Positions 5,172 to 64,000 of a stretch of DNA of 64,000 nt are shown one piece after another. The translations under genes and the position numbers were made by a program. The stretch is taken from positions 4,541,738 to 4,605,737 of the forward strand of contig NC_057752.1 of NCBI RefSeq assembly GCF_004010195.1, given 5' to 3'. The notes beneath the pieces were generated by a model. That model had not been told where the DNA came from and did not search any database. It saw nothing but the letters and a program-made list of their open reading frames with translations. This DNA comes from Chiloscyllium plagiosum (Eukaryota). Within the stretch, counting starts at the first letter, position 1. Each line of letters opens with the position of its first letter.

Positions 5172-6508
5172 TCTTACAGTTAGCATCATTCTCACTGTTG
5201 CATCTAACTGTTAGCATAATTCTCACTGTTACATCTTACAGTTAGCATCATTCTCACTGTTACATCTTACAGTTAGCATCATTCTCACTGTTGTATCTTA
5301 CAGTTAGCATCATTCTTACTGTTACATCTTACAGTTAGCATCATTCTCACTGTTGCGTCTTACAGTTAGCATCATTCTCACTGTTACATCTTACAGTTAG
5401 CATCATTCTCACTGTTGTATCTTACAGTTAACATCATTCTTACTGTTGCGTCTTACTGTTAGCATCATTCTCACTGTTACATCTTACAGTTAACATCATT
5501 CTTACTGTTGTATCTTACTGTTAGCATCATTCTCACTGTTGTATCTTACAGTTAACATCATTCTCACTGTTACATCTTACAGTTAACATCATTCTCATTG
5601 TTGTATCTTACAGTTAACATCATTCTCACTGTTGCATCTTACAGTTAGCATCATTCTTACTGTTGTATCTTACTGTTAGCATCATTCTCACTGTTACATC
5701 TTACAGTTAGCATCATTCTTACTGTTGTATCTTACTGTTAGCATCATTCTCACTGTTGTATCTTACAGTTAACATCATTCTCACTGTTGCATCTTACAGT
5801 TAGCATCATTCTTACTGCTGTATCTTACAGTTAACATCATTCTCATTGTTGTATCTTACTGTTAGCATCATTCTCACTGTTGTATCTTACAGTTANNNNN
5901 NNNNNNNNNNNNNNNNNNNNNNNNNNNNNNNNNNNNNNNNNNNNNNNNNNNNNNNNNNNNNNNNNNNNNNGCATCATTCTTACTGTTGTATCTTACAGTT
6001 AGCATCATTCTCACTGTTACATCTTACAGTTCACATCATTCTCACTGTTGTATCTTACAGTTAACATAATTCTTACTGTTGTATCTTACAGTTAACATCA
6101 TTCTCACTGTTGTATCTTACAGTTAACATCATTCTTACTGTTGTATCTTACAGTTAACATCATTCTCATTGTTGTATCTTACAGTTAACATCATTCTTAC
6201 TGTTGCATTTTACAGTTAACATCATTCTCACTGTTGTATCTTACAATTAACATAATTCTTACTGTTGTATCTTACAGTTAGCATCATTCTCACTGTTGCA
6301 TCTTACAGTTAACATCATTCTCACTGTTACATCTTACAGTTAGCATCATTCTTACTGTTGTATCTTACAGTTAGCATCATTCTCACTGTTACATCTTACA
6401 GTTAGCATCATTCTCACTGTTGCATCTTGCAGTTAGCATCATTCTCACTGTTGCATCTTACAGTTTGCATCATTCTTACTGTTGTATCTTACAGTTAACA
6501 TCATTCTG
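5172..6508. repeat. 31-bp minisatellite, roughly 40 copies, interrupted by an N gap
   Basis: Unit TCTTACAGTTAGCATCATTCTCACTGTTGTA with variants. Confidence 0.97.
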
Positions 6509-33045: not shown

Positions 33046-33457
33046 CTCCAAAACCATAGTGATACAATTATAAAGAACCAATCATTCAAATCCAAATTAG
33101 GTTACATTTGTGTAATGCAGTAATCAACATGAGATAATTCAGTTGGGTCTGTGGATTTTCCCTGTGGTTAGATATACTTCATATGCTCCATTGTGTTTCT
33201 ATTGCTGTCCAATGTTGTGAAAGCACTGAACAAAGTTCATTTGGCTCCATTCTGACTCTCCATGGAAAAATGGAATGGCCCATAGTTTAATAAAAAATTA
33301 ATCCTGTTTAATTTCAGTTTTACATGCTTCTGCAGTTTTTTTTTTGTCTCATTTCGTTTATTTTGAGTCTTTCTCTTGCAGAATTCGCAGCGCCTTGATT
33401 AGATGGCCAGACCCACTTAACATTCCCTACTCCTTCCCTTGTCGACCTCAGACAGCT

Positions 33458-33614
33458 ATGACCTCTACACTGTTGGACTTTAACCTCATGGACACAGGCC
33501 AGGAGGACATTATTGTGAACCGCTGTGACCTGGACGTGAAAGGAAAATATCAACTCATTCCATCTATTATCTATGCCATGTGTTGCCTTTTTGGAGTCAT
33601 CTACTGCTTCTTTG
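33458..33614 (+). CDS. TMEM198B: TMEM198-family transmembrane protein, coding exon 1
   Basis: Acceptor tttctcttgcag ends at 33381; first in-frame ATG at 33458; MTSTLLDF...CDLDVKGKYQLIPSIIYAMCCLFGVIYCFFG matches the TMEM198 N-terminal motif MCCLFGVVYCFFG; donor G|gtgagt at 33615 (phase 1). Paralogue B is inferred from the adjacent MMP19-like sequence. Confidence 0.93.
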
Positions 33615-33651
33615 GTGAGTGAGGTATTGACCAATGTGTGTGAAACACCAA

Positions 33652-39854: not shown

Positions 39855-40937
39855 GTTTGTTTGTCACTTATATAAATGATTTGGATGAGAATTTAGGAGG
39901 CATGGTAAGTAATTTTGTGGATGACACCAAGATTGGCGGTATGGTGGACAGTGAAGGTTATTTAAGGTTACAAAGAGATCTTGATCAATTGGATCACTGG
40001 GCTGAGAAGTGGCAGGTGGAGTTTAATTTGGATAAATGCGAGGTATTGCATTATGGTAAAACAAAAAAAGGGCAGGACTTATATCATTAAAGTTAGGCCC
40101 CTGGGTAGTGTTGCAGAACAAAGAGACCTAGGGATTCAGGTATATAATTCTTTGAAGCTTGAGTCACAGGTAGACGGCGTGGTCAAGAAGGTGTTTAGCA
40201 CGGACGCCTTCATTGCTCATTTTGAGTGAAGGAGTTGGGACGTGTTGTTGAGGTTGTACAGGACATTGGTGAGGCTTCTTCTGGAATACTGTGTCCAGTT
40301 CTGGTCGCCCTGTTATAGGAAGGATATTATTAACCTGGAGAGGGTTCAGAAAAGATTTACCAGGATGTTGCCTCGAACGGAGGTTTTGAGTTATTAAAAT
40401 AGGCTGGATCGGCTGAGGCGTTTCTCGTGGAACATAGGAGGTTGAGGGTGACCTTATAAGGGTTTATAAAATCATGAGAGGTATAGATAAGATGAATAGC
40501 TAGGGTCTTTACTCGAGGGTGGGGGATTTCAAAAGTAGAGGGCATATTTTTAAGGTGTGAGGAGAAAGATTTAAAAAGGACACGAGGGGCAACCTTTTTT
40601 TTTTACGCCGTATGGTTCGTGTGTGGAATGCACTTCCAGAGGAAGTGGGGGATTTCAAAAGTAGGGGGCATATTTTTAAGGTGTGAGGAGAAAGATTTAA
40701 AAAGGACACGAGGGGCAACCTTTTTTTTTACGCCGTATGGTTCGTGTGTGGAATGCACTTCCAGAGGAAGTGGTGGATGTGAGTACAGTTACATCATTTA
40801 AAAGACATTTGGATAAGGACATGAATTGGAAAGGTATGGGTCAAATGCAGGCAAGTGTGACCAGTTTGGTTTGGGAACATGGTCGACATGGACTAGTTGG
40901 ACCATAGGATCTGTTTCCATGCTGTATGACTCCATGA
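39855..40937 (+). mobile_element. CR1 3' fragment with an internal 126-bp tandem duplication
   Basis: FVDDTKIGG and LQRDLDQL; 40519-40644 is repeated at 40645-40770. Confidence 0.9.
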
Positions 40938-41176: not shown

Positions 41177-41752
41177 GTTATCGCTGTTTCAAGGCTGTCA
41201 TGTTCCTCTGTGGGCTGATGTTTGGCTCCATCATCATTTTCCTACTGTGTTACAAGGAGCGGGTTCTGGACATTCAGCTGAGTGTGGAGGCCAGTGCTGG
41301 TATTGGTCTTGGCATCGGAATCCTGTGCGGACTGGTCACCATGCTTGTCCGTAGTGTTGGGCTCTTCATGATTGGCCTCGTCCTTGGCCTGCTAGTAGCA
41401 ACTGTCACCCTCATTGTGATGGAGCAGTTCTACCACCCGCATACCATCTGGGTGCCAGTGGGCCTTCTCATTGGTGTCGGCATGCTGTTTGCTGTCTTAA
41501 CTTTACAGTGGCAAAAGCTCTTCACCATTATCTCCACTGCAGTTTTTGGTGGCGCCATCATTACACTGACTGTGGACTACTTCATCGAGCTGTTTTCGTT
41601 GGCAATATATGTCTATGAGAGGCTCAAGATTGCTCCTTCATTGCCCATTTGTTGGTACAGTTGGGTGATCCTTGCCATCTGGCCAGTGCTGAGTATACTG
41701 GGCATTCTGGTCCAATGGAAGCTGACAGCTGAAGGCTATTCACACACTGAAG
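41177..41752 (+). CDS. TMEM198B: TMEM198-family protein, coding exon 2 (multi-pass transmembrane core)
   Basis: ttgcag|[47 protein letters not shown]...[14 protein letters not shown]; donor G|gtaagg; 576 nt, phase 1 to phase 1. Confidence 0.97.
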
Positions 41753-42570
41753 GTAAGGCCAGCTCAAAACTGGTAGGAAAGGATTTTCTACTTCTCTACC
41801 CTCTAACCAAATAGACTGCCATGAGGATACTGTTGGAGTGATGTGACAGTGAGTGTCGATGGATAATTATTGTCTAACACAGCCTGAGCTTGCTGTCATT
41901 TAGTGCATGCACGCATACACTTTATGGCAAAGGTCACTGGGCAGTGATTGGGTTAGAAACCTTAATGATTATCCCACTCACCCCTCCCCACCACCACATG
42001 TCCCTTCCTGTGATCAGGGTAGGGTGGTCTGAGACCAATTCTATTGTTCCCAGCGCTCCTCTACTTAATTCAAGCCAGACCTGGGATCAAGCATGGTACG
42101 TTGCTAGTTTGTGTGATATGGAACACACTGGATGATGATTTTAGCAACTGATTCTCACAATCAGTGCTTCAGCGTAGATATATTATGGGATTCAAAGGAC
42201 TCATTAAATTGTCCTCTCCAGTTCATGTTACATTGATGCTGATCATGAGTATTTTGACTGGGAAAACCTTTTGGGACCAGGTAGAGAGAGCTGACTGGTG
42301 TTGCTCTGGGTTCAATTGTTCTACTCGTTGTTTGATGACCAGGTTCTTGCCAAAGCACATTGTTGGGTCCAATCTTCTTCTGGCCATGCTGATTTACTGT
42401 TGACTCCACTGAGAAAAGCAAATGAGAATGACAGAAGTATGACTTGGCTCAATTGTCCTATTCTTGAGTAAAGATGGAGCCATCTTGTAGAGGGTAGGTC
42501 AAGACAAGGAGAGGGAATTAGAGCTATTAAAATAAATTCTATTGCCACTAATGCTTTCTTCTTCCTGTAG

Positions 42571-42719
42571 TCATTATCAGTAAACGACAAAAACGAGTGC
42601 AGTTGATGAGAATACGACAGCAAGAAGCAAAGAAACGACAAAGGGCGTCTCAGGCGGAGGGCACATATCGCAGGAAGCCATACCCAGTCAAACGGTACAC
42701 CGGAGACATCCTTTCACCG
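42571..42719 (+). CDS. TMEM198B: TMEM198-family protein, coding exon 3
   Basis: cttcctgtag|TC ATT ATC; (V)IISKRQKRVQLMRIRQQE...YRRKPYPVKRYTGDILSP matches the TMEM198 cytoplasmic tail; donor CCG|gtaaag, phase 0. Confidence 0.96.
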
Positions 42720-43659
42720 GTAAAGTATTCAAAGTCAAACTCTTGTCCTTGGGATATTAGAATGATAAGGGAGAACAGAAAACCTCTGATCTTAGCTTAA
42801 CAGGGAGCAGAAGAATAAAAATGCTATGTTGTTATGTAGAATTACACAGGATACATGGCTCCTAAACAGGCCATTCGGCCCAAAAGATCAATTTATGGTC
42901 CACATGACCTTCTTCTCACCCTTCCTCATTGAACCCATCAGCATAACCCTTTTCCCTCATGGCCTTATCTTCCATTCAAAGGTATCTATGTGATTTACCT
43001 CAACTTCTCCATCCAAATAAATCAAACCAATTTGAACACAGGAATTGAGTCACATTCCATTCCAGTCCATGCATGCTCTGCCTGAAGCTTTCCTGGGCTC
43101 ATGACCTACTGATGCTTCATCCTAAGTTGATTTCTTGGCAGTATGTGTCAGTGTTGGTTTGCCATTGCCTTCCATTCTCAGGGGCAGGCCTAAATCTACC
43201 TTGGCTAGAACAGGAATCGATCCCATGCTGTTTGCATTATTCCAAACCATACACTCTCTATTTAGCCAACTTTGCTACGAACCCCTTTTTTAAAGTCAGA
43301 TAGTGAATCCAAAAATATCCCCAGTGCTATGATTAAAGGTAGATGTTGGTGTGTTCACGTGAGCGAATTATGGAAAAGGAATCTGACAGTGCGATGCAAT
43401 ATAGGACCAGGACATCCACTCCACATCCAGCTAGTGTTGTTCCTCTCCCTGACAGTGGTGAATCCTTGCAAGGTGTGATTCCATGAACGTCAACTATCCA
43501 TGTGCCGTCCTTCAGGTGTGAGCCAAGGCAGTGAGGCTGGGATTTTCTGCTTGGCATAATCTCAGTGAAGTGCCAGTGGAATAAGAGTTCTACCATTCTG
43601 TTCCCAACTGATGTTCTATTGGTATTCCTACTTAATTGTGCAGCCTGCTTGGAGGAGCA

Positions 43660-44845: not shown

Positions 44846-44989
44846 AGCTACATTCAGAGTATCCGAGATCGGCAGACAGCGACATCCATGAGCAGTCTGA
44901 ACACAAACATTCACACCGTTGTGGATCTGGATTACGACTGTGGTTCTACTGTCCCACTCACAGCCACAACCCCTGTAGTCACAGCATGA
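44846..44989 (+). CDS. TMEM198B: TMEM198-family protein, terminal coding exon
   Basis: tttctttag|AGC TAC ATT CAG; SYIQSIRDRQTATSMSSLNTNIHTVVDLDYDCGSTVPLTATTPVVTA* (compare TMEM198 SYIQSFRDRQT); TGA at 44987-44989; total CDS 1026 nt. Not present in the supplied ORF track. Confidence 0.95.
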   Translation, partial: SYIQSIRDRQTATSMSSLNTNIHTVVDLDYDCGSTVPLTATTPVVTA

Positions 44990-47900
44990 GCTAGTCACCA
45001 TCGCACAGCAAGTACTGGTCAAGGTTATTAGTGAACAACCAGTTTATTTAGCTCCCAGCTGGTGACAAGTAGATCACATGTTGACACTCTAGCCATAAGT
45101 CTCCACACACCATGGTCTGTGGGTGTGTCTCTCTCTCTCTCTCTAGGAATCACAGTTCCTGCAAGTATGAAGAAATCTTTGAGTCTGTTCATTTGTTACC
45201 TGCCTGAGTATGTTTTCAGCAATCTGACTGAAAGGAGTTGAACAGGCACCTCACACTCTGCTAATGAAAGGGTGCTTGGCATGGGAGTGGCACATCACCA
45301 GTTAAGGAAGTGTGTATCTTTGTGACCCAGCAGAGAAAGTTACGTGCCCCGTGTCCAAAAGAATAATCAGGACAAGTATGCAGCTCACTTGTGACCTTGG
45401 ATTCTGCCTGTTGCAGACGACATATTTTCCAATGTGCTTATCATCCACTCTCAACAGGTTGTCATCTTTGGGCCACCAGTCTGGCATTTTATGCAGCCAC
45501 AATTCACATTGAATTTCTTTCTAAGCAGCCATTTAACATGTAACCTATTCAACCACTTGTTTCTCAAGCCCAAATTATTTCATGCCCTTGTCTAGTAGTT
45601 TAAAACATGTCATTGTTCAGTGGCAAGCACAATTGACCTTTAAGCAGTGAACTATCTCCCTTTAATACTGTTCCTCTAAACCTGCCTCTAACAAGTATAA
45701 TCCAGCAGAGTAAATGGCCAAATGTTAAATATAAAACACAACCACTTCCTTGATTTTGTCCTCTGGTTTTCTCTGCCTGTGTTCCTCCTAATACTGATCA
45801 GAGATTTAAAATCATTGTTTGCGATGAGTACCTGTTATTTCCTGCTTTCCCACCTTTTCAAATTCCAGATCTGCATGAATCAATTCAAGATTCAAATACC
45901 ACTGGAAGGGCCAGGTCTTTCCCTTCATTCTTAGATGAATGTAAATATCTCCAGTACCTCTATCTATTCAAATGGTCTTCGCACCCGGGACAACAGCTCT
46001 CAGTTGATGAAGGACAGTCACATTGTTCTGTAATGAAATGAACTCTGGATGGGAATCTGTTGGAGATAGACTGATGGCATTGTTTATCTGTATACAATTC
46101 AAAACAGAAATGTACGAGGTCGAAGGTGGATAAAGGCAGAAGGTGCACATCTCTATGGTGAAAAGACAAAACGTATTTGCATGATGAGTAATAAACTCTC
46201 GATTCTAATTGACAGTATTACAGCCTGACCTATACCCTGTCGATGTTCTATACACTCCTGCGTGACTCCATCCACATAGACTGCATGTACCTCTTAGGTC
46301 ATTTTTTTAAAAATGCAGCTCTTATTTGCAATGAAGGTAAGTGAAATGAAAAGACAGAAAAACATCTTTACGCAGTTCAGCTTGAAGGACATATGTGAAT
46401 GGGCATAAAGAATGAGCAGGAGAGTGCATTCAACTTAGAAGACTGATGTGGGGAGAAACAGACTACACAATGCTTCAGTGTTGGAATATTCAATAATTCC
46501 TTAGGTTAATCTTGATAGTTATTGAAAGAGAAGCGTAAAATGCAAGGACTTTCTGTGCTGGTGAAAAGTACTGTATCATGTAGTATTTGCTTTGGGGAAG
46601 CATTTCAGCATTACCAGAAGTTTGCCAGTGACAGTTAAGTGTCAGTGCTTAGCACAGAGCAGTCTGCAGTTCCCCTGTGGACTTCAGTGTCTTGTGACAG
46701 TTGGGTTCCATTGTCAGTCCTGACCAGTTGCCATTGCAGCTCTTGAAGGTCTTGGGTTTTCAGTTTAACCAGCCAGATCAGAGAGGGTCAAACATTTTTT
46801 AGGCTTTGAATCTGCCAACTTTCAGCAGGAAGAAGGGAGAGAATTTTAAAGTATTTGAATCTGTTTCTTGAAATGTCTCCTTTCAAATTGCATTTTAACA
46901 GCCTGAAACATCTGGGGGAAGCTTCTTTAGGTGAATGTGTTTGCAGTGCAGGCACTTGGCACTTGACTGAGTTTTCACTCTCTTCAGGTTCCTTCAATTC
47001 TTTGGACTGCCAGTCTTGTTGGAGGACTGTTCTGTGGGTGCTAGATGTTCTCTGATGCCTGGCCCTAGAAGCCATCCTTTCTGACCGTACACAAGAACTG
47101 TAGGAACTTCCCATCTGAACCCAGTCCCATCATCACTTGAGCGACACACACTCACACCGAGAATACTGAGGACTGTGAGGAATGGGCATTCCTAGTTGTT
47201 TTTTTTTATCTTCCCCTGCCTGGTGCAGCGGCACTTAAGGTGATCAGTGTGCTCCTGTGTTGAAAGTGGAACTCACTCCCACAGGGAGTGGTTAAACGGA
47301 ATTGTATAAATGCATTTAAGTGGAACCTGGACAAGCATATGAGGAAGAAGGGGTAGAGAGTTTTATAATGATGGATTTAGATGGGATAAGTTGGGAATGG
47401 CTCGAGTGGAACATAAACACCAGTCTTATGTGATCCTATGACTGTCCCAGGTGAAATCAAGTTAAACTTGACACAGATTGGGGATTGAAACCATGGGTTC
47501 TCCTTCTCTACGTTAATCAGTATTGCACTATGCCATCAGGAAACGTACATGTTTGTGTTCATAACAGATGTTAAATATCATCAGTGACTTCTTGCAGTAT
47601 GTGGTTCCATTTTTATATTGCGTCAATATTGATGTTGATTATGAGCTAACATTACACACTATTTCCCTGAATTAATTCACTTATTTTGTTTGAATCCTTT
47701 TGATAAACAATTGTTCCATTTATTCAATGTGGAGATTCTTTTCTGTAATGTTTCTGTGTGAATTATAAAGATGATTTTTACATGAGGAAGTGCCTGCGAG
47801 TATTATTTTCATGTCTTGTCGGTGAACCTGAAATAGAATGAGGTTGGGTTTAAGGATTATCTGAGGCAAGATGTGTGTGTGTGTGTGTGTGTGTGGTGTG

Positions 47901-48860: not shown

Positions 48861-51635
48861 ACTCTTTCTGGTGATGCACATGAACTTCCTGAACCACTCA
48901 TTCAGAGGACACAATGTGGATCGCAGGCCTCAAAGATGCAATTTGAACTCATCAGATAATATGAGGAAGGTTAAGAGTCCTTGCAGCGAGGAGGAATCAA
49001 GAGTCCTTCATCACAGCATATAATTGTTTCTTTAATGATTTCTAGGTTCTTTGCATCTACCTAAATTTGGGAAAGCAGTCCAACTGTTGATTGCTCTCTG
49101 TGAAGTGAAGGTTCCTGACCTCAGTTTTCCTAGTTTAAACCTGCTTGACCTACACTTTCAATTCAATTTATGCTTCTTTGAATTTACCATTTCCGTATCA
49201 TTGACTATCACATGGATTTCTTTGATCACCTGAGATCAATCATATTTACTGGAAAAATAGTAAGGCACAATTAGGATACTGGAACATTTAAATTCTACTT
49301 GCAGTCCAATTAAGAAGAAGCTTAATGATGCATTGTGATTTCTTCAAAATCTGGTAGGTACAAAAAAAACATAAAAGATGGAAACATTAGAAACTGTCCA
49401 CAGTACACCAATTATAATTCCCAATCTATTTCATAACTAACTAAGTGTTACCCACTTACTAACACATCCCACTTGCTTTCCACCCCCTGAGGCCTCCACA
49501 CTCACCATCCCCTCTCTACCCACCCAGCATCTCACATCCTCTCCTCGCTCACCATCTCTCCTGTTCCCTGCTCAATGCACTCTCTCTAGTCACAGCATTC
49601 CCCTCATCCCGCCCATTCCCTATTTGCCAGCCCCTCCCTGTTCACCATATCTCACCCCTTAATGTGCATCACCATTAATCAATAACTGTAGCTGCAAGAG
49701 CAGGGTCAGAGGTTGGGAATACTGTGGTGAGTAACTTCCCTCCTGACTCCACAAAGCCTGTCCACCATTCACAAGGCACAAGTCAGGAGTGTGATGGAAT
49801 ATTCCCCACTTGCCTGGATGGGGGCAGCTCCAACAACTTAACACCACCCAGCTCCAACAACTTAACACTTGCCCCCTCTTGATGCCTCTGTCTGGCTCAC
49901 TTTCACTCAGCGCTCTTCTCCTGCTCGCTGAATCTCTTATGCTTGTGACTGAGTCCTGCACGCTGACTCTCACACAGTGACTCAGTCATAAGTCTCATTC
50001 TGTTACTGGTGGGGCTGGCCTGTTGGGTGCCTGAAGAGCATAAAGTGTGGTGAGCCTTTTCAAATAGAGGCAATATAGGGTCCTTGCCACCTGTCTAGCC
50101 CAGAGCCAAGACTTCTTAGCCTGCACAAGGTTCAGTCACATCCATCTCTGCTCAGACCCTCTCACTCACTGCCTCGCTCTCGTGCTCACTGCTGCCCTCT
50201 GATCTCCGTCTCACTTATCCCTTCCTTTCCTGAAGCCAAAGAGAGAGCTTGAGAGAGGGTTGGTGAGGGGAAGGAGGCAAGCAAGGGAGGTTCACAGTGC
50301 GAGCTGGTGAGTCAGAGATGGACAATGAGTGGGCTGCGTACTCAATACCATTGCCTTCGATCATTCAGGCCCAGCAGTGCTTAGGCAATGCTCCGCTCCA
50401 GTGTCTTGTATGATTGTATACCTCCAGTGCTCCATGTACAGCCCGTGTGGTCATTCTGCACCATACACCACTCTGTGTCCTGTAAGAAAAATGACACCTT
50501 TGCAAATTAGAAATCTACTCCTCATTCAAAGGCACATTTTTGGCTAAGACAGTCAGTGTGAAACTTTAACATTTGCTGCTGTGAAATCTGACCAGTCAGA
50601 ATTTGAGTCATTCAACCATTTGGAATGAAATATTAAATCTCTGCTACTCCAGGTTTTCCCTCTCTTTCCCTCTTGTTGTTATGTTATGCTTTGGTTACGC
50701 ACAGGCATTGACCTGTCTGCCATTCACTTGTTGGTGCCATCAGGTTTGAAGTTAATAATTGTGGCCTATTTGCTGGAAGGCATGAGGGCACATCAGCAGC
50801 CTGCCCAGAGATGATGTTCTTTATGATGTATCGTACCTCTTTGATCATCGAGTATCCTCTTTTGCTCTAACTGCCTGTAAATATGTGTCTTCCTGTACTG
50901 TGTTCATTGCACTGGGTGAATAGGGAAGTGTTTTATTTCATCTTTCTGTTACCCTCTCAGTGAATGAGGTAGCGTTTTCTTTATTTCTCTCTCTATGTGA
51001 ATCTCTAGGTGGGATATTTATATTTGCTCCACCCATATGTTTTATACATCCAAACCTCAGGGCCATTGAATTAACAGTAACCTTATGGAGCACATGCATG
51101 ATGACACTGAAAATCGCAGTGAGATTCGGCAGATGCAGAACTCACAAACCACGACCTGTATAAGGCTATGCTGTAACCCAAGGGTGACCGAGCCAAACCC
51201 CCAGACTCTACATTGGGCTGAGTGGGAGACCCAGTCAGTGTCAGCCCGTCAACAGGGAGATTCTGAAGCCTTCACAAAATCCCACTTCTTACCACTTACC
51301 ACCTTTCTGCTTTATGACCAAAGGTGCTTTTACATATCAAGGAGAAACAGAATCCTTTGTGATCTTGAAGTGTGTTGATTGAACCTCCTTGCTCTACGGT
51401 ACCAGCACTGTATCCACCCGAGGTCTACATGATGAAAGGTGTCTCCTGCTGATGCTTGTTACAATTCAGAGATCGAACGTGTTGGGAGATTCTCAGCTGT
51501 GTTGTGGTCTTCTCCACAAGAATACAACTTTCCAACGTATGTATCCAGTAAAGGTATCATCCCAGAAATCACATCCATCAGAAACCCCTTTGTGTATCCC
51601 CCCAGATGACTGATACATATTCAACATTGAACCAA

Positions 51636-51993
51636 TCAACAGGCACAGGTCGCCCTGTTACAAAACCACATCCCAATCTTGGCTTTGCTCTTCGGATATC
51701 CTGTTCCAGCAAGTAACTGACCGTCGACACATTCATGACAAAGAAATGACGTTTCATGAAGAGAGAATGTACTGGAATCATTCCACAGGCCAGGCAGCAT
51801 CTGCGGAGAGAGAGAAAAACAGAGTTTATATTTCAGGTCTGTGACGTTCTGTCAGAAGTAATCCTCACCAGTTTTCCAAGTGATTGCAGAATCGAGGTTT
51901 AATGGAGATCAGGTGAAGAGGTTCCCTTTCCACTTTGGGGGAACTGATGAGGCTGTTTGAGCAGTTCATGTCCCACTGCTGGTATCCATCTCC
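51636..51993 (-). pseudogene. MMP19: Degenerate MMP19-like terminal exon, copy 1
   Basis: Minus-strand acceptor tctttctgtag|GGA GAT GGA TAC CAG CAG TGG GAC (GDGYQQWD; compare MMP19 GSGYWQWD), later GYPKSKAK; frameshifts and a Penelope-derived insertion. Confidence 0.75.
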
Positions 51994-53814
51994 CTACAGA
52001 AAGAGAAAAAAACACAATTTCAATCTTTCCAGCTCTGTGATAATTACTAAACCTGTACACAGCATGATCCCACAAAACCAATTTAGATACTGCTTTGATG
52101 GTAGTAGTCAAGGGGGGAACGCAAGCCAGGATTCCAGGAAAGCTCCCTTCTACAAATAGTACCATGGGCTCTTTTACATTGCAGAGTTTTGTTTAACATC
52201 GCATTTGAAAGTGGCAGTTCTGACAATGCAATAGTCTCTCAGTACTGCGCAGAAGAAAGAAACAGAATATGTGCAGGATCTGGTCTTGAGTCCATGATCT
52301 CTTACTCAGAAACAAGCTAGCCAGGGCTCACACATGTGATACAACTGGACAGGAGAACAACTCACAGCATTAATGAAATGGAGAGCAGTTGCCTCATGTT
52401 ACCAGAAAGAATGAACTTGCATTTCTAAAACCTTCAGCTGTCCCAAAGTGCTTTCCAGTTAATGAAGCACTTTTTAAAGTGTTGTAGCATTTAAGAAATT
52501 AAGGACATTTCCATGACCATCCACGTTTGCCTTGCACCATCATCCTTTTTGTCATTTAATCTCTCCTGCTTTCTACCTTTTCACAGACCTTCCCAGTAAC
52601 TTACTCCTGCCCTCTACACCACACCTGCATCTGTGCTTGTTTAAGCCTTATTGCATCTCTAACTTTTCCCAGGCTGATTTCTACATAGACTCTTTCTGCA
52701 CGGATGCTGCCAGACCTGCCGAGTTACTTCAGTATTTTCTGTCTTTGTTTCAAATTTCCAGTGTCCACAGTACTTTGCTTTAGCAGGAGGCTGTGTTGGA
52801 GAATTGAGACAATGCACAAGGCGATGGATGTGGATCGCTCAACTTTCTCTCGTTGCAGATAACAAGTGGTTGTGGATAATCAATCACATCTTCCTGTCTG
52901 CAGTCACTCATGTTAAGTATTAGCAATTTTGAACCACTCTTATTCATCATGAGGTGGATCATGTCTCTCGGTAGGTGGACACCCACAAGTGCGGTGTTTA
53001 TAGTGCCTGGCCCCCTCATACATATAGTGAAAAGTCTGCACTGAAACATACTCAAGGAAAAGCTGGCCAAATTGACCTGTCTCCCAACAAATGATAATGT
53101 CAGTCTCTCAGACGTCCTTTTTAATATACAGTTATAGATCAATGAAATTAAAGGTTGTGTGGCAAAATCCCTTCCGACCTCTCATTCCACTGACTGATCT
53201 TTGGCCATAAACCGCAAGGATGACATGGGTTGTATGATAAAGGAAACACTCACTGCCACGCAAAATTCAGGTACATCGATAAAAAAGTTCACAATCAGAC
53301 AGCAGTACTGTTGATCAAGAATGTCTTTATATCACTGGGTGTAAAATGTGCGAAAGTATGAAAGGAAACTGATGTCACCGGAGAGTGAGCTGGCTGAGTC
53401 TCAGCCACGTAGGCTGAGCTGGGTTTGAGGCCCAGGGTGATAGCTGTCTGAAATACACATCAGGAACACCTCGTTAAGAGCCCTCATACAATCACACTTG
53501 TACACACTGGTCAGCCTCTTGTTTTAAAAAGAAATCTATTCCTACCTCAATGTAGAAGCTTGCTGTTTGGGTCATCTCCCTCTGACACTGTATCCATCCG
53601 AGGTCTACATGATGAAAGGTGTCTCCTGCTGATGCTTGTTACAATTCGGAGATTGAACGTGTTGGGAGATTCTCAGCTGTGCATGGTCTTCTCCACAAGA
53701 ATACAACTTTCCAACGTATGTATCCAGTAAAGGTATCATCCCAGAAATCACATCCATCAGAAACCCCTTTGTGTATCCCCCCAGATGACTGATACATATT
53801 CAACATTGAACCAA

Positions 53815-54183
53815 TCAATGGGTACAGATCACCCTGTTACAAAACCACATCCCAATCTTGGCTTTGCTCTTCGGATATCCTGTTCCAGCAAACAAATGAT
53901 TGTTGACACACCAGTATTTATTTCCCATGAACAAAGAAAAGATGTTTCATGAAGAGAGAACTTGCTAGAAGCATTTCACAGGCCAGGCAGCATCTGTGGA
54001 GAGATAGAAACAGAGTTTATATTTCAGGTCTGTGACTTTTTGTCAGAAGTAATCCTCACCATTTTTCAAATGATTGCAGAATCGAGATTTAACGGAGATC
54101 GGGTGAAGAGGTTCCCTTTCCTCTTTGGGGGAACTGATGATGCTGTTTGAGCAGTTCATGTCCCACTGCTGGTATCCATTTCC
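53815..54183 (-). pseudogene. MMP19: Degenerate MMP19-like terminal exon, copy 2
   Basis: tctgtag|GNGYQQWD...NLFTRSPLNLDSAII...NGEDYF[insert]FMGNKYWCVNNHLFAGTGYPKSKAK aligns by eye to MMP19 hemopexin repeats 3-4 (GLFTGVP...[30 protein letters not shown]). Confidence 0.8.
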
Positions 54184-55073
54184 CTACAGAAAGAGAAAAA
54201 ACACAATTTCAGCATTTCCAGTTCAGACTGGGTTGATCTGATATCAGCCAGGCCAAGGGGCAGCAATCTGATCATTGGACTTGGTGGCAGTGGACAGGAT
54301 TCCCATAACGGTTTACTACCCACTGGACAGTGCTCATGTGTGGACTTCAGGAGGGGACAAGAACAGGGCCAGCTGCCTGAGAAGGTCCGTGTCTTAGTTA
54401 CAACAACATCAGCAGGGGAGCAGGGCAGAGAAAAATGTCACTGTTTTGTCGAGACCAACTGGTTATGTGAGGCACAATGTCATCCTGGTGAATCTAAATA
54501 TAGTCCCTGAACCACACGGAATAATGATATATTAAAAACACCATCAGCTGATTAGATGGTAGTGTGACCCATTAAGAATAATTTTATATCATTGCACATC
54601 AACGAGCAAGAATAAAGGGAGAGCAATGTTACCAGAGGGTGAACTAATTTAATTTCCAAACTGTGTTGGATTTGATGCTCAGTGTCAGGACTGTCTCAAA
54701 CACCGCATCCTGACTCTCACAAAATCCCACTTCTTACCACTTACTACCTTACTGCTTTATGACCAGAAGGTGCCTTTACATATCAAGGAGAAACAGAATC
54801 CTTTGTGATCTTGAAGTGTGTTGATTGAACCTCCTTGCTCTGCAGTACCAGCACTGTATCCACCCGAGGTCTACATGATGAAAGGTGTCTCCTGCTGATG
54901 CTTTCGGAGATCGAACGTGTTGGGAGATTCTCAGCTGTGTTGTGGTCTTCTCCACAAGAATACAACTTTCCAACGTATGTATCCAGTAAAGGTATCATCC
55001 CAGAAATCACATCCATCAGAAACCCCTTTGTGTATCCCCCCAGATGACTGATACATATTCAACATTGAACCAA

Positions 55074-55326
55074 TCAATAGGCACAGGTCGCCCTGTTACA
55101 AAACCACATCCCAATCTTGGCTTTGCTCTTCGGATATCCTGTTCCAGCAAATAAATGATTGCTGACACACCAGTATTTATCTCCCGTGAAGAACGACATC
55201 CATCAGTTTCCAAGTGATTGCAGAATCGAGGTTTAATGGAGATTAGGTGAAGAGGTTCCCTTTCCTCTTCGGGGGAACTGACGAGGCTGTTTGAGCAGTT
55301 CATGTCCCACTGCTCGTGTCCACTTC
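55074..55326 (-). pseudogene. MMP19: Degenerate MMP19-like terminal exon, copy 3
   Basis: tttttgtcag| followed by SGHEQWD..., then FFTGDKYWCVSNHLFAGTGYPKSKAK in another frame; several frameshifts and stops; no Penelope insert. Confidence 0.8.
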
Positions 55327-56139
55327 CTGACAAAAAGAAAAAAACACAATTTCAGCATTTCCAGTTCAGACTGGGTTGATCTGATATCAGCCAGGCCAAG
55401 GGGCAGCAATCTGTTCATTGGACTTGGTGGCAGTGGACAGGATTCCCATAACGGTTTACTACCCACTGGACAGTGCTCATGTGTGGACTTCAGGAGGGGA
55501 CAAGAACAGGGCCAACCAGTTACAACAACATCAGCAGGGGAAATGAAATTGTTTCTTTCTCATTTTTAGGATATGGACTCTTTTTGAATGTAATAGAATT
55601 TGCAATTAATTTCCTGGGAAGCTTTTCAGTTTAAAATACTTGAAATAGCTAGCTCATGTCATCTATCACTGAATTTATGGAATAACAAATTACTTTCAAT
55701 AAAGTCCTGATCAATTCCTCTTTGACACGATGGACTCCCCACTTCAACACTGACTGCAATATGCTCCTGAGTTTTGAACTTTGCCTCAAGGACCCCACCT
55801 TGCAATTTACCCCGAATTCAATGCAAACTTGGCAAATAGACCTGAGTACTCTGCTCTTGTGAGAGCCAATTTTTCCTTTACAATTGCTCTAACGTGGCTT
55901 TGATGGATTTGTTTCATTGGTGCTCAGGCTGTCAGGCAAAGGGCACACTGCGTGGAGAGGACTCTAGAATTCAGATGGGTGCATCAGATTGATTGACAAA
56001 ATGAAGTGATATGACACAGTGCTATACAAGTTTGGTAACTGAAACTGGCTCTTCTGTCTATTGTTGGACAACTGTAGACAACTTTCTCTCACAGAGCATG
56101 ATTGGAAAGCAATCACTAGCACTCTTATGCAGTCGAGAT

Positions 56140-56572
56140 GAGAGTGGTGCTGGAACAGCACAGCAGGTCAGGCAGCATCCAAGGCGCAGGAAACACCGAT
56201 GTTTCGGGCAAAAGCCAGGGCTTTTGTATTACAGTGAACTTTGTAAAGTTTGTAATGGTATAACCCTCCAGACTACATAGCACCATCGAATCCTTACAGT
56301 GTGGAAACAGGCCATTTGGCCCAACAAGTCCACATTGACCCTCCGAAGAGCAACACACCTAGACCCATTCCCCTACCCTATTACCCTACATTTACCCCAG
56401 ACTAATGCACCTAATCTGCACATCCCTGAACACTATGGGCAATTTAGCATGGCCAATTCACTTAACCTGTACATCTTTGGACTGTGGGAGGAAACTGGAG
56501 CACCCGGAGGAAACCCATGTGGACACGGGGAGAATGTGCAAACTCCACACAGACAGTCACTCAAGGCTGGAA
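56140..56572 (-). mobile_element. Penelope-derived fragment (56140-56215) and HE1 V-SINE (56283-56572)
   Basis: Same diagnostic strings as the other copies. Confidence 0.85.
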
Positions 56573-58857
56573 CAATATTTCATTACTTCAGTCTTTTTTA
56601 CATAATCTGTGTAAAAAGTTGCTGTATTAGATTTTTATAGCTTTAAAGTTGTAAGCAACCTTTACACTATATCTTTTGTCTTCAAAAAAGGGGTAATAAG
56701 ACTCTTTCCAGACATTCAAAAACCACACAGAGAAAAGTAAATTACCAAATAGCTCCAAGAGCAGCAAATGATCAGTAATGAACAAGTGTTTGATTTCATG
56801 ACAACTGAGACCTGAATATCAGTTATTGGGTCCTGACTGCATAGGCTTCCTCAAAAACAACAGGGAAAGAACAATCCAAACTATTGTCTTATCTTAGGAA
56901 AAAGTAATTCAATAACAGGAGCAAACTTTAATCAAGAAGATAGGCTTATGGATAATTGCCACTTTAAGGAAGTAGTAAGGATATAACGAGAGGTGCCATC
57001 AGTCAATATCCCTCAACCGTAAAAGCCCATTAGAGATTGATCTTATGCTGCTTTACAACAAGGCTCACCTACCCTAGGCCAATCAGCATGTAATAATGTA
57101 ATAGATCATGCTGCGGCTCAGAAAGAGTTCAGTTGCTTATGAGCAGCCACTTTCAGTGACCAAAGTGCACATCTAGTTTGAACGTGAAGTAATCCTGCTG
57201 TCCAAGTGGAAGCAGAAGAACTATGAGGTTTTGGAGAGACCAGAGACTGAATGTTGACCCATTTTATAAGCTAAACCAAAAAGCGAGAGTTATAATCCAT
57301 CCCTAAAGTCACAGCCCAGCGTTAACGGGTATTATTTACAGTTTTAGTAAAGTTTCCTCAGTTACTGCACAAGCTAATATTGGGATTGGAGCTTAAATTG
57401 TAATTGAAGTTTTTGACACCTAAGTTTAGCCACAATACAACTCCACAGATTCTGGCATCCCCTCTCTCACTACCTCACACTAATTGCCATCATTTAAGTG
57501 TGAATGACAATAAGCCTAAAGGATGTGAAACTGTAAATTATGCAAATTGAGCAGCATTATATTCATAGATGCATAAGCTTTCCACCAGGGGTCACTGGAG
57601 AGCAATCAGGCACAGTTCCTGAGCAGACATTGAAAAGACACGTTCTGAAAAACACAGTTAACAATTCAGTCCATGAACCCGGAAGCTCAAGTGGCATGTC
57701 CAATGGATTTCCTGCAGTGACTGTATCAGGTTCAGGGATGTTACAGGCCCTTTGAAAGTGGCTCTTCCTGTCCTTAACTCTTACACCCATCCAAATCAGA
57801 CCGAAAACTCAAAATCCTCCCATGTTTACGTATAGGAGAATTCTCCAAATCAGACCTTTATTCTCTCTGAGTGGCTGTGTATTCCTTGAACCTGACAATT
57901 GTCTTGTGTTTCCACTGATCATGTAAAGATCAGGCACTCACCTATCCACTCCCCTGTTACATAGTTTGTAATTAGTTTCAAATTAATGAACGTGATGTAT
58001 TCCCTAGAAGGAAGAAGTAATGATCATCACCCGGGTTGGAGACTCTTTATTCTTATTCACTTATGGGACATGGGTGTCACTGGCTGGGCCCAGCGTTTAT
58101 TGCCCTGTCCATAGTTGCCCCCTTGAGAAGGTGGGGGGGGGGTGAGCTGCCTTCCTGAACTGTGCAGTCCACCTACTGTGGGTTGACCCACAGTGTCCTG
58201 TTGGGGGTTGGGGTGCAGTGTGGAAATTCCAGGATTTTGACCCTGTGACAGTGAAGCGCCTTGTAAATGGTGGACAGGTTTTGGGGAGTCAGGAGGTGAG
58301 TTCCTCAATGCAGGATCCCTAGTCTCTGACCTGCTCTTGCAGACACTGTGATTATGTTGGGAGTCCAGTTGTATTTCTGGTCGACAACTAAATAGAAATC
58401 TCCTGGAGCTCAAGGGTTAACCAGATTATCAGCATTCAGGGTTTGAGGCCCAGGGTGACAGCTGTTTGAAATACACATCAGGGACACCTAGTTAAGAGCC
58501 CTCATACGTTCACACTTGTACACACTGGTCAGCCTCTTGTATTATAAAAGAAATCTATTCCTACCTAAATGTAGAAGCTTGCTGTTTGGGTCATCTCCCT
58601 CTGACGCTGTAGCCATCCGAGGTCTACATGATGAAAGGTGTCTCCTGCTGATGCAATTCAGAAATCGAACATGTTGGGAGATTCTCAGCTGTGTGTGGTC
58701 TTCTCCACAAGAATACAACTTTCCAACGTATGTATCCAGTAAAGGTATCATCCCAGAAATCACATCCATCAGAAACCCCTTTGTGTATCCCCCCCAGATG
58801 ACTGATACATATTCAACATTGAACCAATCAACGGGCACAGGTCGCCCTGTTATAAAA

Positions 58858-59054
58858 TCACATCCAAATCTTGGCTTTGCTCTTCAGATATTCTGTTCCA
58901 GCGAATAAGTGATTGTTGACACACCAACATTTATCTCTCGCGAACATACAAATTCCACCATTTTTCCAAGTGTTTTCAACAGCGAGGTTTAATGGAGATC
59001 GGGTGAAGAGGCTCCCATTCATCTTTAGGGGACTCACCGCTAGTGTCCATCTCC
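58858..59054 (-). pseudogene. MMP19: Degenerate MMP19-like terminal exon, copy 4
   Basis: tttcattag|GGA GAT GGA CAC TAG (early stop plus a deletion), then GSLFTRSPLNLAVENTWKNGGICMFARDKCWCVNNHLFAGTEYLKSKAKIWM*, a hemopexin-repeat pattern. Confidence 0.8.
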
Positions 59055-59449
59055 CTAATGAAAGAGAAAAACACAATTTCAGCATTTCCAGTTCAGACTG
59101 GGCTGATCTGATATCATCCAGGCCAAAGGGCAGCAATCTGATCATTGGACTTGGTGGCAGTGGACAGGATTCCCATAACGGTTTACTACCCACTGGACAG
59201 TGCTCATGTGTGGACTTCAGGAGGGGACAAGAACAGGGCCAACCAGTTACAACAACATCAGCAGGGGAGTGGGGGAAGAAAATTGCCACTTGCGTGAAAA
59301 TCCGTGAATCGTTATTGATTGAACTGTTCATTGAAACAAAAACATGCACAGATTTCCCCATTGAGTTCCTCCTGGGTGAAGGGGGAAATACTCATTGTCC
59401 TGTAGTGATTGGAACCATGGCTAGGTGGATCTGATTGACTATAAGATCC

Positions 59450-59504
59450 CTGATTGGGGCTGTGAACCTGGGCCAATCAGGGAGCCCTGGCTGACAGCTA
59501 TAAA
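59450..59504 (+). promoter_or_regulatory. Putative LTR U3 promoter (CCAAT boxes and TATA box)
   Basis: ctgattgg (~59450), gccaatc (~59472) and TATAAA at 59499-59504 inside the 5' LTR. Confidence 0.55.
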
Positions 59505-59511
59505 CAGAAGG

Positions 59512-60760
59512 GGGATTTGAGGTTTGTCCTCCTCTCCCTGTAAAATGGTTGAACGGTAGGGTTTGGGGCCTAGCTTTGCTGCTCCTCTCCCTTGTAAAAT
59601 TGCTGTCTTTTGTGTACAGCTGTCAATGTTTTTTGTAAACTGGTTAGTAATTTGTTTAATAAAATAATATAAACAGAAGGGGGATTTGAGGTTTGTCCTC
59701 CTCTCCCTGTAAAATGGTTGAACGGTAGGGTTTGGGGCCTAGCTTTGCTGCTCCTCTCCCTTGTAAAACTGCTGTCTTTTGTGTACAGCTGTTAATGTTT
59801 TTTGTAAACTGTTTTGTAATTTGTTTAATAAAATAAAAAAAAAAATAAACAGAAGGCTAAGGGCAGTGTTTGTCACTGGCCACCCGGGTGTTTTCCTATC
59901 TTCCTGGTGGTGGAAATTGAATAAAGATTGGTGCACTTTGTGTCTTTCACTGTGTCTCACACCTGCACACACACACCATGGGTGCTGGGGATAAAATAAG
60001 CACTACCGCACTTAGGTGGTAGTGTGGGGGTTAAATTTGAAAAAAAAAGAGAAAAAAAAATAAACAGAAGGCTAGCTGGAGGGTGGGTAGGCCATCCTGT
60101 GAACCTGAAGGTTGGTAGGCTGTCCTGAAAGCCAGAGGGTGGGTAGGCCACCCTGATGCCAGTCGCCCCGAGAGCCAGATGGTGGGTAGGCCGTTCTGAA
60201 CACTGTTGTCCCGAGAAGGGGTAATCGGGACGGGCTGTCCTAGAGGTGGTCGAAAGGTGTCGGAGCAGCCGAGAGCCAGAAGGTGTGTAGGGGCGGGCTG
60301 AGATCCGGAAGGATTGTGGGTTACCCTGCACGCTGTCGTCCCTGGGAAAGGGGACGGGCTGTCCTAGAGGTGGCTGGAAGGTGTGTCAGGGCGGACCGAG
60401 AACTGGAAGGGGCATGGGGTGGACCGAGAGCCGGAAGGTGCATAGGGGCAGGCTGCCTTAGAGTGGCCGGAAGGTGGGAGGGGCGGGGGCTTGCTGGGTC
60501 TGTATTGTATGCACTGTTTTTTATGTAACTGGATTGTCTTATGTATAAAGGTCATTGTTGCTGTCTTTTTATATTTGAAACTGGGATTTGAGGTTTGTCC
60601 TCAATTCCCTGGAAGCTGGCTGAACGGTCGGGTTTGGGGCCTGGCTTTGCTGCTCCTCTCCCTTGTAAAATTGCTGTTGTATACGGCCGTAAATGTTAAC
60701 TGTTTTTTGTAAATTGTTTTGTAATTTGTTTAATAAAATATTATAAACAGGAAAAAATAA
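59512..60760 (+). mobile_element. Stack of A-tailed non-LTR retroposon 3' ends inserted in the Gypsy 5' LTR
   Basis: Units 59512-59668, 59681-59844, 59857-60059, 60072-60742 and 60752-60760 each end in an A-rich tail and are separated by ATAAACAG(A/G)AGG-type direct repeats. Confidence 0.85.
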
Positions 60761-62030
60761 ATAAACAGGAGGCTCAGAAGGGCTCCTCACTCGAGGAACT
60801 GGCTTGGAGCTGGCTGGTGACAGTTCATATACAGTGCACATGTAAACAAACGGTGACTTAATGATGGGATACCAGCGTCTGTGCAATTATTTCATGGCGA
60901 CAAGAGAAAACAGCACATGCTGGAAGAGAATTTGCTCACAACAGTCGTCTTTGAGTTGGGGTAAGCATTTATGGCATCATGTCGTTATTTGGGAAGCTTG
61001 ACTCATTTGATCTTGCCGTTGAAGACTGGGCACAGTATGTGGAAAGAATGTGTTATTTTTTCCGGGCAAATGACTTTGGGGCAGATGAAAAGAAATGAGT
61101 AATTCTTCTGACAGCTTGTGGACCCGCAGCTTCTTCTGTTAATAGGAGCTTAACTTTCCCTGAGGCACCAGATACTAAAACGTTTCAACAATTGATGGAT
61201 TTGGTTCAGCAATCTTACAACCCCAAACCTTCTCTAATTCTGAGACACCATCGGTAGTTCGAGAACCAGGGGAAACCTGTCTCTGGATTGCAGAGCCTCA
61301 TGCTGGGCATATCCTGAGCAGAGGGCCACTAGGCCAGCCCACAGCAAAGCTGAGCCTTGGCCAAGTGGCTAAAAAGTTCTTCAGGATCTGGGCCGGCAAG
61401 CCATTGTAGTTATTGCTGGTATCCAGGCTTGAGACAGCAAAGGAATCCTACGGAGCCTGAATTGAGTAAGAGAACTCAGAGGCCGGTATCCAGGAGAGTG
61501 CACACCTTGGAAAGCCCACCTACATCTGGCTTGGAACAGCTACATTGGTTCTGATTTGGATGTTGCTAAACAATCAAAATAAATGTCTGGTTAAATGGTC
61601 ACCCAGTTCTAATGGAGGTTGATACCGGCACGGCTGTATCAGGGATTGTGGAACCAGTCTTTAACAAACGTTGCTCTGAACCCCAACCACTAAGTTTGTG
61701 CATGACCTCAGCCAGACTGAGAACCTATACCGGGGAACCTTTACACATTAACGGTACAGTTTCTGTTCCAGTCTCTTATGAGAAGCAGTTGGTTCAGTTC
61801 CCACTGAGTGTAGTAAAAGGCTCAGGCCCAAGCTTGGTGGGTGAAACTGATTCACCGTGATTGGCTCAACATTTTCCAAATAGAAAATGGCTGCCTGAGT
61901 GAACAACTAATTAAATATCCGAAGGCTTTTCAGGAAGGTCTAGGGACTATCAGAGGCGCCAAGGCCACTTTACATGTTGACCAGGAATTCCGCAATTTTG
62001 CAAAGCCACCCAGTGCCATTTGCCTGGCAG

Positions 62031-62295
62031 GAACATTTTTAAGGTGAGATTCCATGGGGGCAATTTTTTTAAACAAAGCATTGTTCATGTTTGAAATGAA
62101 CGTCCAGAAGAAATGGTGAATGTGGGTACAGTTACAATGTTTCAAAGACATTGTGATAAGTACATGAATAAGAAATTATTGGAGGGATATGGGCTGAACA
62201 CAGGCTGGTGGGACTCGTTTAGTTTGGGATTATGGTTGGCATGGACTGGTTGGATTGAAGGGTCTGTTCCCAAGCTGTATGACTCTATGACTCTA
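62031..62295 (+). mobile_element. CR1 3' end inserted in the Gypsy pol region
   Basis: Interrupts the RT-adjacent sequence; ends in (tgactcta)n. Confidence 0.85.
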
Positions 62296-64000
62296 CAGGC
62301 AGAGATCAGGAGGCTGAAAAGCATCAAAGCAATGCAGTTTGTGGGATGGGCAGCGCCAGCCATACCGATTGTGAAGCCAGACAGGTCAGTTTGTCTTTGT
62401 GAGGATTTTAAAATGGTAAAGCATTTCTTGCAGCTGGATAAATACCCACTTCCTCGCACAGAGGATTTATACATAACACTGGCAGTGTGAAGCTGAACAT
62501 GAGCCACGCCTACCTGCAATTACAGTTAGATGAGGATTCCCAGAACTATGTTACAATTAATACCCAGAAGAATCCATTCTGGTTTTAAACTTTCTGGACA
62601 CCCTTCTTGTCACCGCTGACAATATCAGACTGTGGACACAAAAAGATCCAGTCCTGGCAAAACTAAAACAGCTGGTGCTGATGGGGGAAACAGAAGGGCC
62701 AAAACAACCAGAACTGAAGCTTTTCTGGACCCAGAGAGACCAGATCACAACATTACAATGGAGGAGCCAGAGCGATTGTCCGAAGTAAATTTCACCACCA
62801 GATACTGGCTGAGCCTCACCAGGGGTGTCCAGAATAAAGATGTTGGCAAAATGTTATGTCTGGTCGCCAGGATTGGATGCAGACATAGCCGCATTGGTGG
62901 GGCAAGGCCCAGAGTGCCAACGATAACAGCAGCTCACCCACATTTGTGGGGATGGCCAGATAAATCCTGTGCTCAGTTACACATCGACTATGCTGGTCAT
63001 TTCATGGGTTCAATGTTCTTGGCCATTGTGGATGACCATTCAAAGTGATCGGACGTGCATGGAGTTCATCCGTCAACCTCGAGGAGACGAATGAAAAGCT
63101 GCTAGCATCGTTCACAATACACGGACTCCTGGCAGGATTGGTCACAGACAATGAGATGTCATTGACCAGCAGGGAATCTGCGTATTTGCTAAAGTCAAGT
63201 GGCATTTAGCACATAAGGATAGCTCCATACCACCTGTCATCCAACAGTCTGGCGGAAAGAGCAGTCCTAACGTTGAAGGCAGGTTTAAAGAAACAGCCTA
63301 CAGCTTCACTCGATACCAAAGTGTCCTGGTTCCTGTTCGATGATAGGATCATCCCTCATGCAACCGCAAGGAGAGCTCCAGCAGAGTTGCTAATGGGGAG
63401 GAGACTCCCCACCAGGTTAAACCCGATATTCCTAGACCTGGGGGGGAGGGTGAAACGGCAGCAGGAACACCAATGTCAGTCACATGCTTCCTCGAAGTGA
63501 CAGAGACAGTTTACCTCAGGGGACGAAGTCTGGTGTCGAAACCACAGGAATGGCCCGGTATGAGTGCGAGGTCAGGTCCTGTGCTGTACAAAGTTCGGGT
63601 AGGGTAGGCGGTCCTGAACAAACATGTTCAACCACGCAAACGGGGCAAAAGCAAAACATACCCAGCCCCTCAGAATAGCCAGAAGGCCTGTCAGAAACCA
63701 TGGGTTCTACTCCTCTGTCCAGCGTCAAAGAAACCTCAAAGTCCGAGATGCATGCAGCCTTGATATCGTTACCACTGGAAGAAGAGGACGAAACTCGATC
63801 GAGATCTTCCAGATGCAAGAGATGGACTACGGTCCAGTACATGCTGCCTGTATCAGAGTCAGTCAGAGGAACCAGATCGGGGATGAAAATGACCCAAGGG
63901 AAGCTACAAGAAAGAGAACAGGCCAACATCCCTGGACTGAGTTGGGCAGGGATGTAGTGATTGGAATGAGATTGGCCAGGTGGATCACATTGACTATGAG

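Follow-up and report, generated by a model that had tools for sequence, protein, structure and literature searches.

In four places on one strand, near an apparently intact TMEM198-family gene, the last exon of the gene for MMP19, a matrix-cutting enzyme, occurs in broken form in a 64,000-nucleotide (nt) stretch of the genome of Chiloscyllium plagiosum (contig NC_057752.1, positions 4,541,738 to 4,605,737; hereafter the window, numbered from its first letter). An earlier account made from the letters alone, here called the sequence-only reading, had proposed four MMP19-like terminal-exon repeats, and both self-comparison of the window and tblastn with a shark MMP19 recover four minus-strand units. 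The locus is most likely an ordinary pseudogene remnant with local duplication and one unexplained feature: what a lost gene left behind, rather than a new functional system. A frameshift common to at least three of the copies, unrelated spacers between them, the TMEM198 neighbour and an invariant 135-nt block all go beyond that earlier account.

Results

Four repeat units on the minus strand

Self-comparison resolved units c1 to c4, all on the minus strand, each 0.76-1.0 kb long and mutually 79-95% identical over the main blastn matches. Unit c1 (51272-52035) comprises about 40 nt of a shared intron end, a pseudo-exon, a copy of the invariant block just behind the exon coding end (51505-51639) and a 3' flank that we call type A. 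Unit c2 (53421-54442) carries an upstream block with a 21-nt insertion, a pseudo-exon, the invariant block (53684-53818) and a different 3' flank, type B. The same arrangement recurs in c3 (54717-55541; upstream block 55345-55541, invariant block 54943-55077, flank type A) and in c4 (58439-59290; upstream block 59072-59268, invariant block about 58696-58831 with an extra G, flank type B). A T-rich tract followed by AG is recognisable in all four units, ending just before 51993, 54183, 55326 and 59054, where acceptors had been placed beforehand, and a polyA-like hexamer lies downstream of every unit. The earlier claim that the last exon was amplified together with flanking intron and 3' sequence stands in general, except that c1 retains merely about 40 nt of the shared intron end versus about 200-230 nt in c2-c4. 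The units account for 44% of the stretch 53400-59400 and interspersed repeats for 9%; the surrounding window is vertebrate DNA with many repeats resembling long and short interspersed nuclear elements (LINEs and SINEs).

The exon remnants belong to MMP19

It is close to certain from the sequence comparisons that the exon remnants belong to MMP19. The best match is MMP19 of the sevengill shark Heptranchias perlo (residues 369-445; tblastn E 1e-13 to 4e-7). Its residues 360-442 align to all four copies, and apart from these four places nothing else in the window matches this protein (XP_067832755.1) below E 1. This is the comparison of shark MMP19 with the window that the sequence-only reading had suggested. 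Heptranchias MMP19 is itself intact, with a catalytic match and four hemopexin matches. In frameshift-aware alignments to a profile of the fish MMP19 last exon (121 sequences) the copies scored 53-111 versus -22 to -62 for shuffled sequences (eight per copy), and the likeness is therefore not due to chance. Likewise, a hidden Markov model (HMM) of MMP19 built from 121 sequences and run against 3098 six-frame pieces of the window gave three matches at E<0.001, all inside the array and covering model positions 415-472 of 474; the next match had E 1.2. Neither the HMM nor the Heptranchias tblastn revealed any other MMP exon (propeptide, catalytic or earlier hemopexin) in the 64-kb window, as had been claimed.

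Profile searches in the opposite direction agree. With a profile built from six window pieces, a search of 1.84 billion proteins retrieved hemopexin-repeat proteins, 76 matches in total. The best window alignments among the 76 were to tarpon MMP19 and to genomic read-throughs of the MMP19 last exon, not to other hemopexin proteins. A 42-residue piece of c3 matched Pfam Hemopexin on 55077-55202 (E 0.005, below the curated cut-off) and, among solved structures, MMP14 at E 3e-6 as well as further MMP hemopexin domains; the c4 piece alone gave no Pfam match and no useful match in the PDB. A first homologue search with the 42-residue c3 piece returned no candidate, missing even Heptranchias MMP19, with which it has three overlapping 5-mers in common, and absences from that word-filtered search are therefore weak. 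When tarpon MMP19 was the query, all named proteins among the best 120 of 710 matches were ray-finned fish, which is uninformative on sharks; five of the six unnamed protein matches that we checked were bony vertebrates.

The remnants resemble intact MMP19 of Heptranchias (XP_067832754.1 / XP_067832755.1) and of bony vertebrates in their exon start, a G following a phase-0 AG that is also seen in the genomic read-throughs P0016, P0024 and P0036, and in motif order; residues such as LFTR, ITWK and TGYPKSK are shared with the Heptranchias protein. They differ from intact MMP19 in consisting of the last exon alone, present four times and broken each time, with no other MMP exon in the window. The motifs listed in the sequence-only reading hold up unevenly. 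G(D/N/S)G(Y/H) does follow the acceptor except in c3, where the AG is displaced inwards by one base; the G-S-G reading there takes in the last base of that AG, which puts it out of phase with the acceptor. QWD is present in c1-c3 and LFT in all four copies; WK is found in c1, c3 and c4 and was lost at a frameshift in c2. Clear versions of the FFxGxKYW-type motif survive in c3 and c2 and a decayed one in c4, whereas c1 has lost it to a deletion; GYPKS persists in c1-c3.

No copy is intact

None of the four copies retains an intact last exon in phase with its own acceptor, in agreement with the earlier claim that every copy is broken: lesions of the frame occur in all four, and the phase-0 splice products would be 42, 46, 8 and 4 amino acids (c1 to c4) versus 77 in the Heptranchias exon. 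The c1 pseudo-exon (51660-51993) has a +1 frameshift (51924-51941), a stop at 51911, an insertion of about 120 nt and a 14-nt deletion over KYW. That of c2 (53839-54183) has the +1 frameshift, a -1 frameshift near 54068 and an insertion of about 120 nt at about 53933-54057, with 45 of 76 residues still identical to Heptranchias MMP19. The c3 pseudo-exon (55098-55326) combines an acceptor off by one base with the +1 frameshift, a stop at 55245 and a net loss of two bases near 55200. The most diverged copy, c4 (58852-59054), carries a 29-nt deletion (net offset -28) and, in splice phase, a stop at codon 5; its stretch from LFT to WM is still in a single frame, with 52% identity to Heptranchias (tblastn E 1e-13).

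In each of the three copies that can be tested (c1-c3), LFT lies at offset 73 instead of 72, which amounts to a common +1 frameshift. Its most parsimonious site (offsets 52-69) falls inside a stretch whose length is unchanged in c4, and c4 thus probably carries the same lesion. Later lesions are private or partly common: c1 and c3 have a stop at one same codon, and the insertion is present in c1 and c2. Between copies the proportion of nonsynonymous differences (pN) is 0.07-0.26 and that of synonymous differences (pS) 0.10-0.25, giving pN/pS of about 0.7-1.4 in all six pairs, based on about 40 synonymous sites per pair. Judged by these ratios, the copies appear to diverge without sign of protein-level selection. 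Identity to the Heptranchias exon is 53-59% for the copies versus 65-70% for six of six intact bony-vertebrate exons. Given the +1 frameshift common to c1-c3, and probably to c4, and the near equality of pN and pS, the exon was most likely already dead when it was copied.

The insertion in c1 (51747-51866) is 89% identical to that in c2 and also matches, weakly, four more places in the window; we take it to be SINE-like. It begins at a GT donor-like site (51866 in c1, 54057 in c2, minus strand) and holds a pyrimidine tract and an AG, making it partly small-intron-like; the insertion is downstream of the common frameshift. A 102-codon open frame over c3 (55019-55324, minus strand) was rejected as a coding exon, being out of phase with the acceptor and lacking a Pfam match, and none of the other open frames spanning the conserved blocks had a Pfam match.

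The TMEM198 neighbour and the fate of MMP19

The units face, tail-to-tail, a gene of the TMEM198 family (paralogue TMEM198B or TMEM198) that ends at about 44990, 6.3 kb from the MMP19 remnants. Its four coding exons, each open in the expected frame, run on the plus strand: an upstream exon at 33302-33622, placed by a motif, and 3' exons at 41179-41752, about 42570-42720 and about 44849-44990 (PF13886, E 2e-42), apparently intact. TMEM198 adjoins MMP19 in mammals; a cattle gene list gives the order PYM1, MMP19, TMEM198B, DNAJC14 (PMC12075139). TMEM198 adjacency may accordingly serve as a synteny marker for the ancestral MMP19 site, and at this site the expected 3' end of MMP19 is occupied by dead copies alone. 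Judging from the reading frames, the locus would make no MMP19 C-terminus. The sequence-only reading had left it that the functional gene lies beyond 64 kb or has been lost; the common frameshift and neutral divergence tip the balance towards the second part without settling it, and we regard the loss of MMP19 in this lineage as likely.

A live MMP19 upstream, beyond position 64000 and with its own intact last exon, is a possible but rather doubtful alternative, under which the units would be debris of a duplicated 3' end that died and was recopied. Above c4 the window extends for another 4.7 kb and stops within retrotransposon-like DNA, which leaves the rest of the locus out of view; moreover, at least one shark, Heptranchias, has an intact MMP19. 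Against this, all copies at the expected site are dead and are less like shark MMP19 than are coelacanth or frog exons. In a search whose profile was weighted with window residues, the best 120 of 307 matches included a single named cartilaginous fish, Heptranchias (rank 16), and among the first 14 of 267 rows no other protein was closer than 70% to the Heptranchias exon; both are weak absences. We found no report of MMP19 loss in cartilaginous fishes in the open-licence literature, a search that left out the supplements of shark genome papers, which may list such a loss, and we found no shark MMP19 data in PMC8273697 or PMC13088543.

An invariant block behind a divergent exon

Divergence along the units is strikingly uneven. 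The exon differs by 6-20% between copies, the 196-nt block before it by about 2% (1.5-2.6%), and the 135-nt block behind it by no substitution in any copy, its sole change being a 1-nt indel, the extra G in c4. Counted from 5' to 3' in c2-c4, variable columns number 6 of 196 before the acceptor, 42 of 193 in the exon, 6 of 24, 0 of 135 and 9 of 87. The contrast between conserved blocks and exon is present in every copy pair; the 135-column invariant run was never reached in 20000 permutations (maximum 113), and with CpG-type changes removed the observed run of 171 still exceeds the permutation maximum of 162. Relationships among the copies also shift along the unit: the insertion joins c1 with c2, the 3' flanks join c1 with c3 and c2 with c4 (the switch lying about 100 nt behind the invariant block), and 11 informative sites divide 3/4/4 over the three possible trees. 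Gene conversion is impeded by indels, and conversion between neighbouring copies, blocked where indels had piled up, is the likeliest explanation that the alignments suggest for both the block identity and the incongruent trees.

We consider it unlikely that the invariant block and swapped flanks are instead an artefact of short-read assembly, arising by collapse to a consensus or by mis-joining. The window does contain five sized N gaps of 75-522 nt, which suggest that short-read contigs were scaffolded, as well as two adjacent duplications that are near-perfect, and the flank switch so close behind the block is what mis-joining could leave. However, the upstream block is 1.5-2.6% divergent and c4 has its extra G inside the 135-nt block, so any collapse would be incomplete; the array itself is free of N gaps, and the copy-specific exon lesions would hold regardless.

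Purifying selection on two functional blocks, acting as an enhancer or a non-coding RNA with the dead exon as passenger, seems to us improbable. The substitution counts in c2-c4 given above (none in 135 and 6 in 196 columns versus 42 in 193 in the exon) are what constraint would produce, as are the permutation results with CpG sites in or out and the recurrence of the contrast in every pair. As an RNA, however, neither block has an Rfam match, folding z-scores are -0.8 to +1.0 on both strands, the H/ACA-like and C/D-like boxes are imperfect and their arms fold no better than shuffles; the identical block copies leave no covariation for a structured-RNA analysis. The incongruent trees are, moreover, as recombination predicts. 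A 27-nt word of the invariant block had no match in metagenome contigs, which is uninformative for a shark. A stronger version, in which MMP19 died in this lineage and the two flanking blocks were co-opted for another role (as an RNA without structure, or as an enhancer acting close to TMEM198), with selection raising them to three and four copies and the dead exon carried along, is equally hard to credit; were it true, the intron end and 3' flank of a dead gene would form a dosage-amplified regulatory unit.

It is highly improbable that the copies act as alternative last exons giving a live MMP19 short new C-termini: the four acceptors are still recognisable, c1 and c2 are open for 42 and 46 codons in splice phase and a polyA-like hexamer follows every unit, but the frame ends after 8 codons in c3 and after 4 in c4, pN and pS are about the same, upstream MMP19 exons are absent from the window, and a truncated last exon would leave the hemopexin propeller incomplete. 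Among 24 listed sequencing runs matching 53400-59400, 20 contain part of the stretch and eight contain at least half of it. These eight come from two studies of one organism, and one of the two studies may be the source of the window; none of the listed runs is recorded as RNA. One presumed RNA run contains 0.24 of the words of 53400-59400, which the repeat content of the stretch makes a lead only.

How the units were copied

The spacers between units are 1.4, 0.3 and 2.9 kb long and have no homology to one another or to the outer flanks beyond short interspersed repeats (blastn word 7, E<0.01). The units thus probably arose as short local duplications, and they form no head-to-tail tandem array; Tandem Repeats Finder, with periods of up to 500 allowed, reports no repeat between 51 and 59.4 kb. 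The longest word common to the neighbourhoods of both unit ends was 5 nt or none in four of four units, leaving no target-site duplication, and no terminal inverted repeat of the units was among the 25 longest of 185 pairs, a test that does not cover Helitron-type ends. Because target-site duplications and terminal inverted repeats are both lacking, the units appear to bear no sign of transposon carriage.

Discussion

The best explanation overall, and one that we think likely, is that the units are non-coding remains of MMP19 and lie where the gene originally stood, next to TMEM198. The first event would have been a +1 frameshift around codons 18-23 of the last exon, seen in c1-c3 and presumed in c4, which removes most of the hemopexin repeats encoded by that exon. 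The layout of the units shows that a piece of 0.7-1 kb (intron end, exon and start of the 3' flank) gave rise to three further copies inside 8 kb, all pointing the same way, possibly by local template-switch or break-repair duplication with differing breakpoints; each copy would afterwards have collected its own stops, indels or insertion. Finally, ectopic gene conversion or unequal crossover may have kept the indel-free blocks near-identical while the indel-rich exon escaped.

Several observations weigh against this account. An intact last exon could exist beyond position 64000. Conversion alone leaves unexplained why, whichever pair is compared, the divergent stretch fits the old exon so closely; of the 42 variable exon columns, CpG decay accounts for just 10. 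The +1 site is favoured inside the part retained by c4 by only one or two changes, and it is therefore not certain that c4 shares the frameshift; a common lesion can, in addition, spread between copies by conversion. The small number of synonymous sites behind pN/pS counts on the same side.

A close comparison is with unitary or partial pseudogenes whose local duplicates exchange sequence by non-allelic gene conversion. Such loci are likewise marked by an early common lesion, neutral divergence, identity tracts of 100-200 nt and incongruent trees; here, in contrast, short units sit in unrelated spacers, not head-to-tail, and the divergent patch is the old exon. A copy-number gain at the MMP19 locus is also known in humans: a 7.5-kb tandem triplication at 12q13 in cavitary optic disc anomaly is intergenic and lies upstream of an intact MMP19 (PMC6487068). 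The shark units differ from that triplication, being the 3' exon of a broken gene, and no common mechanism is implied.

If the loss is real, MMP19 is missing from some sharks but kept by the sevengill shark, comparative work on matrix remodelling would gain a datable gene loss, and any 'MMP19-like' annotation at this locus would denote a remnant. The locus could also serve as a compact test case for whether indels free a segment from conversion while its flanks stay homogenised.

Other features of the window

Directly upstream of c4, the DNA at 59401-64000 resembles a decayed long terminal repeat (LTR) retrotransposon, in which 61570-61857 weakly resembles an aspartyl protease (Pfam E 0.036, below the cut-off) and integrase-like frames are recognised by eye. 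A 45-nt direct repeat (59401-59445 and 63953-64000, 81%) may be a pair of LTR ends. Near-perfect adjacent duplications at 59499-59836, 60570-60777 and 40519-40729 represent either recent duplication or assembly artefact; they include a 169-bp unit present twice at 97-98% with an older third copy, and a pair of 85-nt copies that match at 99% and lie 126 nt apart. At 5172-6507 lies a 31-bp satellite of about 41 copies with an 89-90% match, broken by a gap of 75 N.

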